Below are positions 3,527 through 44,103 of a stretch of 64,000 bases of DNA, piece by piece (positions within the stretch are counted from its first letter, which is position 1; every line of letters begins with the position of its first letter). The position numbers and the translations under genes were made by a program. Below the pieces are notes generated by a model, which was not told where the DNA came from, made no database searches, and saw only the letters and a list, made by a program, of their open reading frames with translations. The DNA comes from Escherichia phage P479, in the sequence record MW269952.1; one strand, written 5' to 3'.

Positions 3527-4069
3527 ATGAAAAAAGTAATCGCCACCTTACTATTGACAGTTAGTATGTCTGCCCATAGCGTAGAGCCTACTTTCAGTAA
3601 TGAACAAATGGGGAACCTCCAGTATGCTTATGCGTTTGGAGAACAGTTCCAGAAAAATGGTAAGTACAAAGAAAATCCGCACCAACATAATGGTTTGGGA
3701 TATATCATGGCTGGTTTAGCCTGGCAGGAAAGTTCTGCTGGGATTAATACTGGATTAAATAAAGATAAGCATCATGCATATGGTATATTCCAAAATTATC
3801 TTCCAACCGTGCGCGAACGCGTGAAACAGGTTGGGTGGACAATGACAGATAAAGAAATAATCAAGATGATAAGCAAGAGAGAGAACAGTACACGCTGGGC
3901 TTATATTGAGCTTTCATACTGGTTGAATATTCATAAGGGGGATATAAGGAAAACACTATCATCATATAACGCAGGGTGGAATGTGAAAGCTGGTAATACG
4001 TATGCTTCACAGGTCCTAGAAAAAGCTAACTACTTAAAATCACGAGGCCTATTAAAAACGGTGGATTAA
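3527..4069 (+). CDS. Secreted lytic-transglycosylase-like protein (SLT fold)
   Basis: 180 aa; N-terminal signal peptide; ES...AYGIFQ motif typical of SLT domains; lies next to regB. Confidence 0.5.
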   Translation: MKKVIATLLLTVSMSAHSVEPTFSNEQMGNLQYAYAFGEQFQKNGKYKENPHQHNGLGYIMAGLAWQESSAGINTGLNKDKHHAYGIFQNYLPTVRERVKQVGWTMTDKEIIKMISKRENSTRWAYIELSYWLNIHKGDIRKTLSSYNAGWNVKAGNTYASQVLEKANYLKSRGLLKTVD

Positions 4070-27143: not shown

Positions 27144-27900
27144 GCCTCTTATTGAGGCTTCATTTTGCAGTTATCAAAATGCCAACGTTTCATATTGGCT
27201 GGCGTACCGACTACATTACAATGTGGACACTGAATTTTGGGGTCCACCTTTTTCTTCCGGTTTGGATTGGATTTGCAGAATTGTTGGTGAGTGGATATAA
27301 CACACTTTTTACCTTCAAGACCACAAAATTCACAAGTTAAAATTTCATGTTTAGCTTGTTTTAATCCTACTGAAATTTTTTGCTTTTGTTTTTCTGGAAT
27401 AGTATGAACAACCTTGTTTGGACCTTTGGAACAGTTATCAAAATGCCAACGATTCATATTGCCAACGAGACCGGTTTTTCCACAGTGTGGACATTCAACT
27501 CTCGGTTTTAATTTGGCGGATTCTGACATTTTCTTTCTGGTTTCATCGGAGAAAATTTTATTTTGTTGAGCTTCCAAGTTTTTACGACGAAGCCATCCAA
27601 ATAATTTGTTTTTGCTTCTGTCGGCGTTTGGTGAGGAAACTGTCATCATGCGCGCGGCATAGACCAAAGAAGCATTATTTGGATGCATTTTGACCAACAG
27701 TTGATGACAAACGAAATGTTCCTCGGGAGTTAAATCAACAAGATTTGAAGCGTCGTCTGCCCCACCCATACAACGGGGTATAATGTGATGACTTTCAGAG
27801 TATGTGGTTAATTTGCGATTCAATGCTCTGCTAATAAGCTTTTGGTAAATGATGTTATAATTCATATCAGACCCTTGTTTGATACTGCAACGGATAATAT
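27144..27900 (-). mobile_element. Homing-endonuclease insertion between genes 46 and 45
   Basis: Only antisense gene in a co-directional replication-gene block; HNH family. Confidence 0.55.
27149..27865 (-). CDS. Free-standing HNH homing endonuclease with three zinc-ribbon repeats
   Basis: 238 aa from the internal Met (MNYNIIYQKL); HNH motif SHHIIPRCMGGADDASNLVDLTPEEHFVCH; three CPHCGKTG/NMNRWHFDNC-type repeats; AAGGG Shine-Dalgarno. Confidence 0.75.
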   Translation of the reverse strand: MNYNIIYQKLISRALNRKLTTYSESHHIIPRCMGGADDASNLVDLTPEEHFVCHQLLVKMHPNNASLVYAARMMTVSSPNADRSKNKLFGWLRRKNLEAQQNKIFSDETRKKMSESAKLKPRVECPHCGKTGLVGNMNRWHFDNCSKGPNKVVHTIPEKQKQKISVGLKQAKHEILTCEFCGLEGKKCVISTHQQFCKSNPNRKKKVDPKIQCPHCNVVGTPANMKRWHFDNCKMKPQ

Positions 27901-41425: not shown

Positions 41426-42454
41426 ATGTCATATATTGATAAAGAATTTGCAGTCAGAGCTTTATCGTATCAACCACGTTATAGAGAAGTCACCGGGAGC
41501 ACATTTAAAGCAAACTGTCGTTGCAAGGTTTGTGGGGACTCCCAGAAAGATTCACACAAGGCTCGATTCTGGGCGTATACTAATCCGGCTGATGGCGCGG
41601 TTTACGTGAAATGTTTTAACTGTGACTACTCCACGCATATAAGCAAATACATAAAAGAGTTTGAGCCTGATTTACACCGGGAATATATGGTTGAGAAGTA
41701 CAAGGAGAACGCCTTCGGGCGACAACGTAATGAAGTTGCAGAAGCTCCGAAAGAACCAGAAAAAACTCCGGTTATCGAACAGCTTGCTTTTTGTGAAAGA
41801 CTCGATACTTTACCAGAAGCACATCCGATAGTTAAGTATGTAAAAAGTCGATGTATTCCAAGCAATGTTTGGAACCGACTATGGTTTACAAACCAATGGC
41901 CTGCATTAGTTAACTCCGTTAATCCTGGGACGTATAAGAATGAAACGAATGAACCACGCTTGGTTATTCCTATCTTCAACGGCAAAAAAGAAATCGAATC
42001 TTTCCAAGGACGAGCTCTTCGCAAAGATGCACCACAAAAATATATCACAATCAAAGCTCACCCAGAAGCTTCCAAAGTCTATGGCGTAGACAAGATTGAT
42101 GAGCGTAAACGCGTATGGGTAATGGAAGGTCCGATTGATAGTTTGTTTATCCCTAACAGCATTGCGATAACTGGTGGAACATTGTCATTGGAAGCCGTTC
42201 CTTATCCAGAAACCAGAGTATGGGTAATGGACAACGAACCAAGACATCCGGATACGATTAAACGTATGAAGAAGCTCGTTGAAGCTGGCGAAGCTGTTAT
42301 GTTCTGGGACAATGCACCATGGCATACGAAAGACATAAATGAGATGGTTAAATCAGAAGGAGCAACCCCTGAACAAATCGAATCATATATGGCCGATAAC
42401 GTTGCTCAAGGATTGATGGCGAGAATGCGACTTTCGAAGTACGCAAAAGTTTAG
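41426..42454 (+). CDS. 61: DNA primase gp61
   Basis: 342 aa; N-terminal zinc ribbon (CRCKVCGDS...CFNCDYS) and TOPRIM region (VMEGPIDS); matches T4 gp61 length. Confidence 0.9.
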   Translation: MSYIDKEFAVRALSYQPRYREVTGSTFKANCRCKVCGDSQKDSHKARFWAYTNPADGAVYVKCFNCDYSTHISKYIKEFEPDLHREYMVEKYKENAFGRQRNEVAEAPKEPEKTPVIEQLAFCERLDTLPEAHPIVKYVKSRCIPSNVWNRLWFTNQWPALVNSVNPGTYKNETNEPRLVIPIFNGKKEIESFQGRALRKDAPQKYITIKAHPEASKVYGVDKIDERKRVWVMEGPIDSLFIPNSIAITGGTLSLEAVPYPETRVWVMDNEPRHPDTIKRMKKLVEAGEAVMFWDNAPWHTKDINEMVKSEGATPEQIESYMADNVAQGLMARMRLSKYAKV

Positions 42455-42651
42455 GAAGGGATTCCGGTAAAGTAACCGATGATGGAATGGATATGTTCCA
42501 TTGTGACCTGGAGTAAGTGTACCCCTTGTGTTGCAGCGATAGGCACAACCAGTAAGTTCCACAGGAAAACATCAAGAGCTAAAAAGCCCATGATGAGCTT
42601 CTTGTCTTTCTTACTGGTTAATTTCCAAATCTGATAGAATAATGTTCCCAT
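42451..42651 (-). CDS. Hypothetical small membrane protein (paralogue B)
   Basis: 66 aa; AGGTGGA Shine-Dalgarno 8 nt after paralogue A stop; shares LWN(F/L)(I/L)V.P(V/I)A...GV motif with A. Confidence 0.5.
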   Translation of the reverse strand: MGTLFYQIWKLTSKKDKKLIMGFLALDVFLWNLLVVPIAATQGVHLLQVTMEHIHSIIGYFTGIPS

Positions 42652-42659
42652 AGTTCCAC

Positions 42660-42857
42660 CTATATAAGGCCGATTAATGCCAGTGAAACATCTACAACTG
42701 ATTCGAGCGCGACGACTGGTAATATAACACCATGTGCCATTGCAACTGGAGCAACAATGAAGTTCCAGAGTAGAACTAAACAGAGTACCGAAAGGACCAG
42801 AATCGTTCGCTTACGACTGCCTTTGATGGCTTGAATTAGACTAGATAGTTTTAGCAT
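42660..42857 (-). CDS. Hypothetical small membrane protein (paralogue A)
   Basis: 65 aa; AAGGGGGA Shine-Dalgarno; late-promoter-like CATAAATA upstream on the minus strand; one transmembrane helix. Confidence 0.5.
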   Translation of the reverse strand: MLKLSSLIQAIKGSRKRTILVLSVLCLVLLWNFIVAPVAMAHGVILPVVALESVVDVSLALIGLI

Positions 42858-42941
42858 ACATCCCCCTTTCTTGTATTTATGCTTTAAACCAATACGATAT
42901 AATTAACATACAAACAACATGAATTGATAAGGAAAAATATA

Positions 42942-43457
42942 ATGGCTCATTTTAATGAATGTTCTCAACTGATTGCTGGTGTTGATAAAGCTCAGGGCGC
43001 TTATGATAATGCAATTTTTGAAGGCACTGACCCACTGCAAGTTATGCTTGATATGCAGAAATCATTGCAGGTTCGTCTGGCTAATGACCGTGATTATTGC
43101 TACCATCCAGATAAATTAGCGACTGCTGGTGATGTTGTTGCTTGGATGCGCGAACAAAAAGACTGCATTGACGATGAATTCCGTGAACTGATTACTTCAT
43201 TGGGTGAAATGTCTAAAGGTGAAAAAGATGCATCTGCTGTCTGGAAAAAATGGAAGGCTCGTTATACTGAAGCGCAAGCTAAACCAATTTCAGAAATGTC
43301 CCCAGAAGACCAGCTTGAAATTAAATTTGAATTAATTGATATCATGCATTTCGTATTCAATATGGCTATTGGTTTGAATATGTCTGCGGAAGAATTGTTC
43401 AAACTGTATTATCTGAAAAATGCCGAGAACTTTGCGAGACAGGACCGTGGCTATTAA
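42942..43457 (+). CDS. 56: dCTP pyrophosphatase gp56 (MazG-like)
   Basis: 171 aa from ATG 42942; MAHFNEC...DPLQVMLDMQ...YCYHPDKL.TAGDVV.WMREQKDCIDDEFREL.TSLGEMS.GEK.ASAVWKKWKARY nearly identical to T4 gp56. Confidence 0.9.
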   Translation: MAHFNECSQLIAGVDKAQGAYDNAIFEGTDPLQVMLDMQKSLQVRLANDRDYCYHPDKLATAGDVVAWMREQKDCIDDEFRELITSLGEMSKGEKDASAVWKKWKARYTEAQAKPISEMSPEDQLEIKFELIDIMHFVFNMAIGLNMSAEELFKLYYLKNAENFARQDRGY

Positions 43458-44103
43458 GGCAAGATTTCATAGGACGTATATAATTAAAGTTAAAACGCCG
43501 AAAGGCGTTTTTTGGTATGGTGGTAAACACGAAACCAATGTACTAGACCCATATAAAGACCGATATTCAGGCTCCGGAAAAATACTCTGGAACATATATA
43601 AAAAGTATGGAGTCAAATATCAAATTCGCTGGTTTGTTGGTCACCAGAATAGGGAAATGGCGTTTGAACATGAAAGATATCTAATATCATTATTAAATTC
43701 TAAACATGGTTCAAACTGTATTAATATTTTACCTGGTGGGCAGGGCGGAGGCGGATATGAATGGACTGATGAAATGAAGTTGGCCCAAACACTACGTTTA
43801 AATAAGCCCGAAACTAAAGCTAAAATGAAAAGCGCCCAATGTGTTGCTCAAAATCGCCCTGAACGCAAATCCAGACAATCAAAAGCAATGAGCGAGTTTT
43901 ATGCAAATGGTGGAAATAAAATCGTATCAGAAGCCACATCTAAAGCGCAAAGAACTGCAGCTCATTGGCATGAACCATTGAAAAGTGAAATCTATCAGAT
44001 TTGGCTTTCATTAGGTAAACCCGGTGGAGCTTCTGCTGTGGTTAAAGCACTTAAGGGAAAATACGAAACAACCCCCAGCGCACTTAAACTTTTAATATAT
44101 TAA
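43420..44103 (+). CDS. segF: GIY-YIG-like homing endonuclease (SegF-like by position)
   Basis: About 227 aa; YIIKV...VFWYGGKH, HERYLISLL and NILPGG resemble GIY-YIG elements; between gene 56 and soc as T4 segF; start uncertain, overlaps gene 56 end. Confidence 0.5.
   Translation: MPRTLRDRTVAIKARFHRTYIIKVKTPKGVFWYGGKHETNVLDPYKDRYSGSGKILWNIYKKYGVKYQIRWFVGHQNREMAFEHERYLISLLNSKHGSNCINILPGGQGGGGYEWTDEMKLAQTLRLNKPETKAKMKSAQCVAQNRPERKSRQSKAMSEFYANGGNKIVSEATSKAQRTAAHWHEPLKSEIYQIWLSLGKPGGASAVVKALKGKYETTPSALKLLIY

Follow-up and report, generated by a model that had tools for sequence, protein, structure and literature searches.

The stretch of DNA that we analyzed (the window) comprises 64,000 nt from Escherichia phage P479 (sequence record MW269952.1). 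Between its genes for primase (gene 61) and dCTPase (gene 56) lie two short ORFs on the minus strand, referred to here as A and B, and the coordinates of these genes, their upstream signals, and their immediate neighbors are collected in Table 1. An earlier note on this DNA had described the pair as two ORFs of 65 and 66 aa located 8 nt apart, each preceded by a Shine-Dalgarno sequence and together, as the only genes on the minus strand, interrupting a 15-kb codirectional block. The sequence agrees with this layout and with both Shine-Dalgarno assignments, while the statement about the block is about right: the annotations of phages VR7 and VR26 place all of the neighboring genes on the other strand, and the next minus-strand gene within the window is an HNH homing endonuclease at ~27149-27865. 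Gene A terminates with a TAG codon at 42662-42660, which is followed by the 8-nt spacer (gtggaact) and the ATG of gene B at 42651. Given the short spacer and the lack of a separate promoter for gene B, the two genes are expected to be cotranscribed. The stop codon of gene B overlaps that of the primase gene, with positions 42451-42454 (4 nt) common to both genes. No strong intrinsic terminator was found 3' of gene B, the only candidate being a weak terminator-like site downstream of it (42370-42358), and a late transcript originating from the pair would continue antisense into the 3' end of gene 61. A search of Rfam with positions 41800-43300 yielded no match; for a type I toxin-like small membrane peptide, a cis-encoded antisense RNA repressing its translation would be expected.

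Table 1. Coordinates of the A/B gene pair, its upstream signals, and its neighbors within the window.
Feature	Position	Strand	Remarks
Gene A, 65 aa	42660-42857	minus	A-type PHROG 2024; predicted bitopic inner-membrane protein; the copy that is maintained
Gene B, 66 aa	42451-42651	minus	B-type PHROG 2024 paralogue
Primase gene 61	41426-42454	plus	Convergent neighbor of the A/B pair
dCTPase gene 56	42939-43457	plus	Divergent neighbor; 5' region and promoter of A lie in the common 81-nt intergenic spacer
Shine-Dalgarno of A, GGGGGA	42861-42866	minus	AGGAGG in relatives
Shine-Dalgarno of B, AGGTGGA	42655-42661	minus	Overlaps the stop codon of A
Late-promoter-like element CATAAATA	42874-42881	minus	16 nt upstream of the ATG of A

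Both proteins matched PHROG 2024, a family of unknown function, along virtually their entire lengths (A, E 2.5e-26, residues 1-65 against profile positions 1-65 of 65; B, E 2.1e-25, residues 1-64), and this was the sole PHROG match for either one. They also matched each other by BLASTP (40% identity over 42 aa, E 2e-8), which together with the full-length PHROG matches bears out the earlier suggestion that they are real paralogues rather than chance ORFs. The core motif of the family, W-N-x4-P-x-A ... G-x-x-L-P, is present at all positions in A and at all except P47 in B, and the pair likewise occupies the position typical of the family in T4-like genomes, convergent on the 3' end of gene 61. 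For both types of gene, pN was far below pS, with dN/dS values of 0.13-0.44 wherever dS was estimable (0.14-0.44 for gene A). In comparisons of gene B with other genera, the synonymous sites were saturated (pS 0.67-0.93), while pN was 0.13-0.33. The short length of the ORFs would be compatible with chance open frames in an intergenic spacer, as would the missing annotation of the homologous ORF in the T4 reference record, JS98, SP18, and PEi20, but the probability of this is negligible: PHROG matches at E ~1e-26, purifying selection on the family, and ~820 homologous loci in which the start, Shine-Dalgarno sequence, and promoter motif are all kept refute it. Thus, A and B are real genes that are conserved, syntenic, and under purifying selection. 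Both exact protein sequences are already present in GenBank as hypothetical proteins of Escherichia phage P479 (100% identical for A), and PHROG 2024 is already catalogued, which makes this a mostly ordinary finding.

The A-type gene occurs in ~690 T-even-like phage records and the B-type in ~130, with Gaprivervirus being the only genus to carry both types, arranged in tandem as one operon. Convergence upon the 3' end of gene 61 was observed in Tequatrovirus, Gaprivervirus, Dhakavirus, Marfavirus, Kanagawavirus, Gelderlandvirus, and metagenomic T4-like contigs, and the same arrangement beside gene 61 was found in at least seven genera. The 4-nt overlap of gene B with the primase stop codon is mirrored by the genes of T4, RB32, JS98, Marfa, and Kosakonia 305. 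In T4, the homologue of A (54% identity; NC_000866 17738-17938, plus strand) has the same convergent place and orientation and overlaps the stop codon of gene 61, yet the T4 reference record carries no annotation for it. Annotated relatives include RB32ORF030w, RB69ORF029w, VR7ORF033w, VR26_031/032, and the P479 hypothetical proteins. The earlier note had placed the T4 early genes 61.x, sp, and dmd within this interval and supposed that the membrane protein pair had replaced them, a statement about T4 that is no observation on the sequence. Neither part holds, because all of these genes are located upstream of gene 61, not only in T4 and VR7/VR26 but also in the window, where the sp-like and 61.x-like ORFs are located at ~39.7-41.4 kb, and because T4 itself has the A homologue in the same convergent position. 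The comparison with other T4-like phages that the note had proposed found the frames to be conserved at one position across these genera. From the T4 homologue and the arrangement shared by at least seven genera, we can conclude that the pair belongs to an old syntenic family and is not a replacement. [quoted passage not shown]

An exhaustive profile search across 1.84 billion representatives recovered only 17 clusters, all of 33-82 aa, and no characterized relative was found among them. Likewise, searches of Pfam, NCBIfam, and PDB sequences, as well as a Foldseek search with the AlphaFold2 model, produced no meaningful match and no characterized homologue. We also found no paper on this gene in the literature searched by ORF names, T4 small or unannotated proteins, ribosome profiling, and transcription-start maps.

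The T4 late promoter consensus is TATAAATA, in which the first position is variable. The element upstream of gene A, CATAAATA, is a variant of this consensus that has C instead of T at the first base (position -13), and it lies on the coding strand within the ~10-40 nt before the start where an element of this type is found in late genes. Variation at position -13, including the tolerance of non-T bases, has been documented (PMC2988020, PMC1524935). The ATAAATA motif is three-fold depleted in the 64-kb window (7 copies vs 21.2 +/- 4.7 expected), and all seven copies lie 16-39 nt ahead of an ORF that begins with ATG, those of soc, gene 49, and 61.1 among them. Given that the motif is rarer than expected and always precedes an ORF, the promoter-like motif of gene A is no chance match, which upholds the earlier description of a late-promoter-like sequence at this site. 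Moreover, NATAAATA is found at the same upstream position of the homologues in T4, RB32, JS98, Marfa, Q7622, Kosakonia 305, and PEi20, and both NATAAATA and AGGAGG are conserved upstream across 7 genera, while the remainder of the spacer diverges. No sigma-70-like promoter was found placed to drive gene A, as the single 9-of-12 match (42968-42939) is >80 nt from its start. Judging from these signals, the pair is probably made late in infection, and a gp55-type late promoter, CATAAATA, would give rise to one mRNA encoding two paralogous PHROG 2024 proteins.

The earlier note had also assigned a basic N-terminus and one transmembrane helix to both proteins, and the charge distribution and the AlphaFold2 model of A concur. 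The model has a mean pLDDT of 78.6 and helices at residues 2-13, 15-41, and 51-62. There is one predicted membrane-spanning helix of 21-27 residues with a mean Kyte-Doolittle hydropathy of 1.8-2.6, while the second hydrophobic segment has only ~12 residues and is too short for membrane crossing. Among nine diverse family members, 5-8 K/R residues precede the helix and 0-1 follow it; charge is accordingly found at the N-terminus, and the C-terminal 19-27 residues hold 0-1 K/R and have a hydrophobic end. Residues W31, N32, P37, and A39 are invariant among 16 diverse members and L46 and P47 are nearly so. The conserved motif, W-N-x4-P-x-A...G-x-x-L-P, is predicted to lie where the helix reaches the periplasm. 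The predicted orientation is N-in/C-out: a K/R-rich amphipathic N-terminal segment would stay in the cytoplasm, followed by the single transmembrane helix and then by a periplasmic tail of ~25 residues, which may turn back to form a short hydrophobic helix. In this arrangement, the conserved residues (W-N-x4-P-x-A, followed by G-x-x-L-P-x-V-x-x-E/D) would be grouped in the turn and at the end of the transmembrane helix that faces the periplasm. Because of this clustering, the proteins most likely act through helix-to-helix contact, either among themselves or with a partner in the membrane, on the outer side of the inner membrane during late infection. Among bacterial regulators, small bitopic proteins such as MgrB and SafA (~50-65 aa, N-in/C-out) operate in a comparable way, using a membrane helix and short periplasmic tail to act upon a larger membrane protein. 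They resemble A and B in size and predicted orientation, but are host proteins unrelated in sequence, so the likeness is an analogy for the mode of working and no claim of membership.

The two genes of the pair appear to have had different fates. Gene B is orthologous to the single copy of Dhakavirus, Marfavirus, and Klebsiella phages, and it has decayed independently in many members of Gaprivervirus. The lesions include a +1 frameshift in VR7, an ATG-TGA nonsense change together with a 26-nt deletion and a homing-endonuclease insertion in DK-13 and RZ, and a 5' deletion in SP18, PSD2001, and TH54, while VR20 gave a split match. In the degraded-B genomes in which gene A was inspected (VR7, SP18, and DK-13), it was intact. 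Within the window, B carries the substitution P47L at the nearly invariant proline; none of the other proteins in its 90% cluster of 12 members has this change, which is private to the window. Gene A would thus represent the T4-type version that is maintained and gene B a Dhakavirus-type version that may be redundant beside it and hence is being lost in Gaprivervirus. The pair may have originated either from an old duplication with reciprocal loss or from an acquisition. As for recombination between T4-type and JS98-type genomes, the identities of the flanking gp56 and gp61 proteins displayed no clear switch.

The earlier note had named holin/antiholin-like, superinfection-exclusion, and small membrane toxin roles as possibilities for the pair. 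As holins or pinholins, A and B would build up in the inner membrane during late infection before permeabilizing it to release the endolysin. The proteins are small, have a membrane-spanning helix, and are predicted to be expressed late, all of which they have in common with the inner-membrane holins T of T4, S105 of lambda, and S68 of phage 21. In addition, a distant family member heads a codirectional block ending in a T4-type lysozyme, a lysozyme is also nearby in DCP80, and one member from phage OE5505 carries the UniProt name 'Holin'. However, this name is a single automatic label, and other members are misnamed 'DNA packaging ATPase' or 'dCTP pyrophosphatase'. Holins typically carry a hydrophilic, highly charged C-terminal tail, whereas A and B have their charged segment at the N-terminus and a hydrophobic C-terminus with 0-1 K/R. 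They share no sequence relationship with the three holins and match no PHROG lysis family, and in the T4-likes the gene lies outside any lysis cassette without an adjoining endolysin (its neighbors here being primase and dCTPase), with lysozyme proximity confined to distant members that are not T4-like. Furthermore, the T holin is found in 1975 phage records, including members of Tequatrovirus, Gelderlandvirus, and Kanagawavirus, which carry the PHROG 2024 family. With a T holin already present in these genera and no charged C-terminal tail, a holin role is unlikely, and we see only a slim chance for it.

Superinfection exclusion, defense, or counter-defense through contacts at the periplasmic face, whether by blocking DNA entry of other phages or by neutralizing a host abortive-infection effector that acts on the membrane, would fit the location of the conserved residues toward the periplasm. 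It would also suit the divergence of the two types (25-40% identical, with flanking proteins at 60-80%), the replacement of one type by the other within a genus, as occurs in conflict genes, and the accessory-gene positions of some distant members at prophage ends, beside host genes, or beside a RelA/SpoT-type gene. The T-even exclusion proteins Imm and Sp are encoded by early genes, and Imm contains two membrane helices. Like A and B they are small T-even envelope proteins, and sp lies a few genes upstream of the pair. In contrast, A and B have one full membrane helix and a late-type promoter with no convincing sigma-70 promoter, they match neither Imm nor Sp in PHROG or Pfam, and selection within each type is purifying rather than diversifying. 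Therefore, we regard an exclusion or defense function as improbable. The main function could instead reside in the RNA, with late antisense transcription into the 3' end of gene 61 shutting off expression from the early strand and the peptides being secondary. In T4, some sites are known to be transcribed from both strands, each at a different time (PMC2988020), the genes converge on gene 61 with stop codons overlapping or nearly abutting in almost every genus examined, and B is followed by no strong intrinsic terminator. Conversely, the amino acid sequence is kept while synonymous sites are saturated, the Shine-Dalgarno sequence is conserved, and the family also occurs in phages where the gene is not opposite primase. 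We accordingly rate this reading as very doubtful, and an RNA effect would be an additional function at most.

Taken as a whole, the locus is best explained as a minus-strand, two-gene late operon of paralogous PHROG 2024 membrane proteins in which B is redundant, a reading that we judge somewhat likelier to be right than wrong. What these proteins do is a tentative guess: a late accessory inner-membrane protein, possibly for control of the envelope or of lysis timing, is favored over a holin, even though on its own we would sooner expect this guess to fail than to hold. The lysis-inhibition protein RI of T4 combines a globular domain in the periplasm with a signal-anchor that can be released. 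A and B would resemble RI and RIII of T4, together with the accessory genes rI.-1 and rI.1 (PMC2962797), as small T-even proteins that act late at or near the inner membrane, the kind of accessory role favored here. A and B differ in having no sequence similarity, with PHROG 2024 as their sole PHROG match, and in having a periplasmic part of ~25 residues as opposed to the globular domain of RI.

In contigs that are not T4-like, distant members of the family (PHROG 2024 E 1.3e-9) are found where late operons end, and their neighbors include endonuclease VII, a T4-type lysozyme in two contexts, and an Rz-like protein with a transmembrane helix and coiled coil, although the Rz-like matches reach only E ~1e-3 and may reflect coiled-coil composition. 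These neighborhoods, which come from one or two other phage lineages, are weak pointers toward a role in lysis or a late module. Among the T4-likes, the PHROG 2024 gene is located away from e, t, rI, and the spanin genes. In the other lineage, the partner that recurs most consistently, a protein of 180 aa, resembles a 'minor tail protein', which points toward morphogenesis rather than lysis. The idea of a lysis cassette began with the distant member P0122, whose 180-aa and ~105-aa neighbors are not membrane proteins. A search for related loci returned nothing with a second distant member, P0118, and only near-identical copies with P0122.

As a discovery, this locus has small value, since the genes are deposited and the family is catalogued. 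It does reveal that the T4 reference annotation lacks a conserved ORF with a late-type promoter, purifying selection, and hundreds of relatives. The family could constitute an unrecognized, conserved late component of T-even envelope control, such as a modulator of the T holin or lysis inhibition or a host-specific membrane factor, which we think fairly unlikely. If it were true, the component would have been overlooked because the gene is missing from the T4 reference annotation, and types A and B would differ in specificity so as to match a partner. Simple genetics could settle the role of this small, membrane-bound family, which is easily deleted in T4. For the family itself, the tandem A/B pair, from which B has been lost repeatedly and independently, amounts to a natural experiment and indicates that one type can stand in for the other.

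A direct read of the sequence bore out the earlier note's description of two small minus-strand ORFs (A and B) in tandem between the primase and dCTPase genes. ORF A is closed by a TAG at 42662-42660, and 8 nt separate its stop from the ATG of B. A is preceded by GGGGGA, in place of which relatives have AGGAGG, and by CATAAATA at 42881-42874, with its ATG 16 nt further on; B is preceded by AGGTGGA, which overlaps the stop codon of A, and the stop codons of B and the primase also overlap. The suggestion that A and B are paralogous was likewise upheld, as they share 40% identity over 42 residues (E 2e-8). The sequence-level observation on the pair is thereby confirmed. The nearest other minus-strand gene is an HNH-type homing endonuclease ORF. 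The SegF-like gene is present in VR7 and VR26 and absent from SP18, JS98, and RB32.

Coordinates of the A/B pair, its neighbors, and comparison loci (window positions unless a locus is named)
Feature	Coordinates	Strand	Remarks
ORF A	42660-42857	-	65 aa; between genes 61 and 56
ORF B	42451-42651	-	66 aa; between genes 61 and 56
Primase gene 61	41426-42454	+	neighbor of B
dCTPase gene 56	about 42939-43457	+	neighbor of A
HNH-type homing endonuclease ORF	27149-27865	-	just after gene 46-like ORF; CATAAATA precedes
SegF-like homing endonuclease gene	43420-44103	+	overlaps end of gene 56
T4 homologue of A	NC_000866.4 17738-17938 (T4 locus L005 3739-3939)	+	between dam and gene 61
Non-T4-like locus	L017 3237-5610		
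Non-T4-like locus	L020 3260-5082		
Non-T4-like locus	L023 4272-5159		
Non-T4-like locus	L024 4263-5153		
Non-T4-like locus	L022 2980-4213		

It had also been proposed that the pair replaces the 61.x, sp, and dmd genes, which were thought to occupy this interval in T4. This was incorrect, as 61.1, 61.2, sp, 61.4, and dmd all lie upstream of gene 61 in T4, VR7, VR26, and the window, rather than between genes 61 and 56. The T4 61-56 interval holds dam together with a gap of 309 nt that neither NC_000866 nor AF158101 annotates; the gap contains a 66-aa opposite-strand ORF that is 54% identical to A and has an AGGAGG site, GATAAATA upstream, and a stop codon overlapping that of gene 61. Since T4 has its own homologue in this gap, the pair replaces no T4 genes, and there is no departure from T4 gene order of the kind proposed. 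The A/B pair is this phage's own form of a gene found in T4 too. In each of the T4-like loci inspected (T4, RB32, JS98, Marfa, Q7622, CGG4-1, Kosakonia 305, PEi20, and two metagenomic lineages), the gene is convergent with gene 61, facing its 3' end. In RB32, the T4-type homologue is annotated as ORF030w, "similar to RB69ORF029w", and homologues are unannotated in JS98, SP18, and PEi20, as in T4. The first ~15 codons of the Tequatrovirus ORF contain an inverted repeat, ATGGCA...TGCCAT, followed by a T-run on the other strand (Yersinia phage fPS-90, L030 596-636; T4, L005 about 3753-3790); it is annotated as an early-strand terminator in the fPS-90 record and is absent from copy A of the window. 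In the T4 relative T4_ev240 (L033 about 1483-1608), a 1-nt deletion in an A-run truncates the ORF; the gene may truly be lost there, or the homopolymer may have been misread in sequencing.

Gaprivervirus phages (VR7, VR20, VR25, VR26, SP18, UPEC01, and others) share 89-93% identity with the region. Protein A is 100% identical to an Escherichia phage P479 hypothetical protein and B exactly matches a second one; both genes are annotated in the VR26 record, and A is annotated in VR7 as VR7ORF033w, "similar to RB32 ORF030w". Both proteins match PHROG 2024 (function unknown) over their full length (A, E 2.5e-26; B, E 2.1e-25), and no relatives were found in Pfam, NCBIfam, a PDB sequence search, or Foldseek. 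A and B have been annotated before, fall within a catalogued family without known function, and have a T4 homologue. The family is narrow: among 1.84 billion representative proteins, an exhaustive profile search recovered only 17 clusters, all of 33-82 aa. By tblastn, A-type genes are present in 692 phage records; Tequatrovirus, at about 50% identity, makes up most of these, plus 33 Gaprivervirus-like records at ≥80% identity. The B type was found in 129 records, from Dhakavirus (JS98, JS10, VR5, Bp7), Marfavirus, and other Klebsiella phages as well as Enterobacter, Salmonella, and Edwardsiella phages; Kanagawavirus members fall between the two types. The earlier note had made its case depend upon conservation of the frames in relatives, and they are kept in hundreds of phage records, together with the start codon, Shine-Dalgarno site, and length. 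A-type pairs exhibit dN/dS of 0.14-0.44, and B-type comparisons between genera give pN of 0.13-0.33 with saturated synonymous sites (pS 0.67-0.93). Such conservation shows A and B to be genuine genes. Family members are misnamed, or named without support, in public records, for example as "DNA packaging ATPase" (UPEC01, SAKp28, and Klebsiella phages EI, MY02, and VAC36), "dCTP pyrophosphatase" (CGG4-1, SEA1, dhaeg), "thymidylate synthase" (SHP1), and, in UniProt, "Holin" (OE5505). Escherichia phage DCP80 (L032, PQ671644.1 1-48000), filed as Gaprivervirus, combines a siphovirus-like structural module with early genes of T4-like type and carries two oppositely oriented copies of rIIA; the record is probably a chimeric assembly. 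Between endonuclease VII and a gene of 183 aa lies a 57-aa family member that the record leaves unannotated (L029 2779-2952).

Both types occur together only in Gaprivervirus. B, which shares 74% identity with the JS98 gene, holds the ancestral position against the primase, as in its closest relatives; A, which bears the promoter, is located between B and gene 56. Flanking-protein identities revealed no clear recombination junction. B is intact in TH44, TH41, TH15, UPEC01, MN01, VR25, VR26, and the window, and has been inactivated independently in many other Gaprivervirus genomes: by a +1 frameshift in VR7, by a codon-2 nonsense mutation plus a 26-nt deletion in DK-13 and RZ (where a homing-endonuclease gene is inserted between primase and B), and by loss of the first ~27 codons in SP18, PSD2001, 212, and TH54. 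The match in VR20 is split, and several further records are fragmentary. A is intact in the degraded-B genomes in which it was inspected (VR7, SP18, and DK-13), which indicates that B is dispensable when A is present. A and B are most likely functionally interchangeable. The window B itself carries P47L (codon 47, 42511-42513) at a nearly invariant proline, a change confined to it within its 90% cluster of 12 members, the other 11 of which have proline.

The late-promoter-like sequence noted upstream of A withstood comparison. An NATAAATA element lies 10-25 nt 5' of the Shine-Dalgarno site in all genera. Marfa, Q7622, and Kosakonia 305 match TATAAATA perfectly; at the variable base, RB32 and JS98 have A, T4 has G, and the window and PEi20 have C. 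According to reviews, T4 late promoters tolerate variation at -13, where nine of 50 sites have A, and relatives show poor conservation of the T at this position (PMC2988020; PMC1524935). ATAAATA is about three-fold depleted in the window (7 copies versus 21.2 +/- 4.7 expected), and all seven copies (6338, 16340, 27901, 41203, 42874, 44347, and 56604) have an ATG-started ORF 16-39 nt downstream; soc, gene 49 (endonuclease VII), and 61.1 are among these ORFs. In this genome, the motif looks like a reliable late-promoter marker. Because the element is common to all genera, even though the surrounding spacer has diverged, and because of this depletion and placement, we infer with good support that A and B would be transcribed late. 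B has no promoter of its own, so it would have to be cotranscribed with A.

The distant members in non-T4-like contigs, whose membership was confirmed by PHROG 2024 (E 1.3e-9), lie at the end of late operons. The typical order is a tail protein, a 91-153-aa transmembrane helix/coiled-coil protein, endonuclease VII, the family member, a 180-aa protein, and a protein of about 105 aa, with T4-type lysozyme next in two contexts. The coiled-coil neighbor has weak Rz-like spanin matches (E about 1e-3). The 180-aa neighbor resembles the "minor tail protein" family phrog_1924 (E 6.8e-8) and is found again with a family member, the genes being ordered differently, in a third and more distant prophage. 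These neighborhoods support late expression and point weakly to lysis or morphogenesis as the setting, without fixing a role. A 2.2-kb contig (L021 129-1383) carries a 352-aa RelA/SpoT-domain gene with a 59-aa family member 17 nt upstream of it.

A and B encode membrane proteins. The basic N-terminus and single transmembrane helix reported previously recur in nine diverse members, which have 5-8 K/R in the 15-42 residues before the hydrophobic helix and 0-1 in the 19-27 after it; by the positive-inside rule, this predicts an N-in/C-out orientation. An AlphaFold2 model (16-sequence alignment, mean pLDDT 78.6) has helices at 2-13 and 15-41; after a loop at 42-50, a short helix at 51-62 folds back onto the membrane helix. 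W31, N32, P37, and A39 show no variation, and L46 and P47 almost none. The constraint is therefore concentrated at the periplasmic helix end and turn, suggesting an interface at which the helix packs against a partner or against itself.

We found no homologue with a known role. Of the roles named here, an accessory late envelope or lysis-timing protein ranks first, a possibility that we advance tentatively. A true holin is quite improbable, as T holin homologues occur in 1975 records, including members of several family-carrying genera, the protein has no charged C-terminal tail, and the gene is away from the lysis genes in T4-like phages. With no strong terminator found 3' of B, the transcript probably runs antisense into gene 61. 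We consider it very unlikely that the locus is mainly an antisense-RNA device. A role in exclusion, defense, or counter-defense is unlikely, and some other role accounts for the remainder. Overall, the interpretation in the earlier note is upheld in part: A and B are real genes for membrane proteins that are probably expressed late. Two by-products are useful: the T4 reference lacks annotation of its A homologue, and the Gaprivervirus pair constitutes a natural redundancy experiment.
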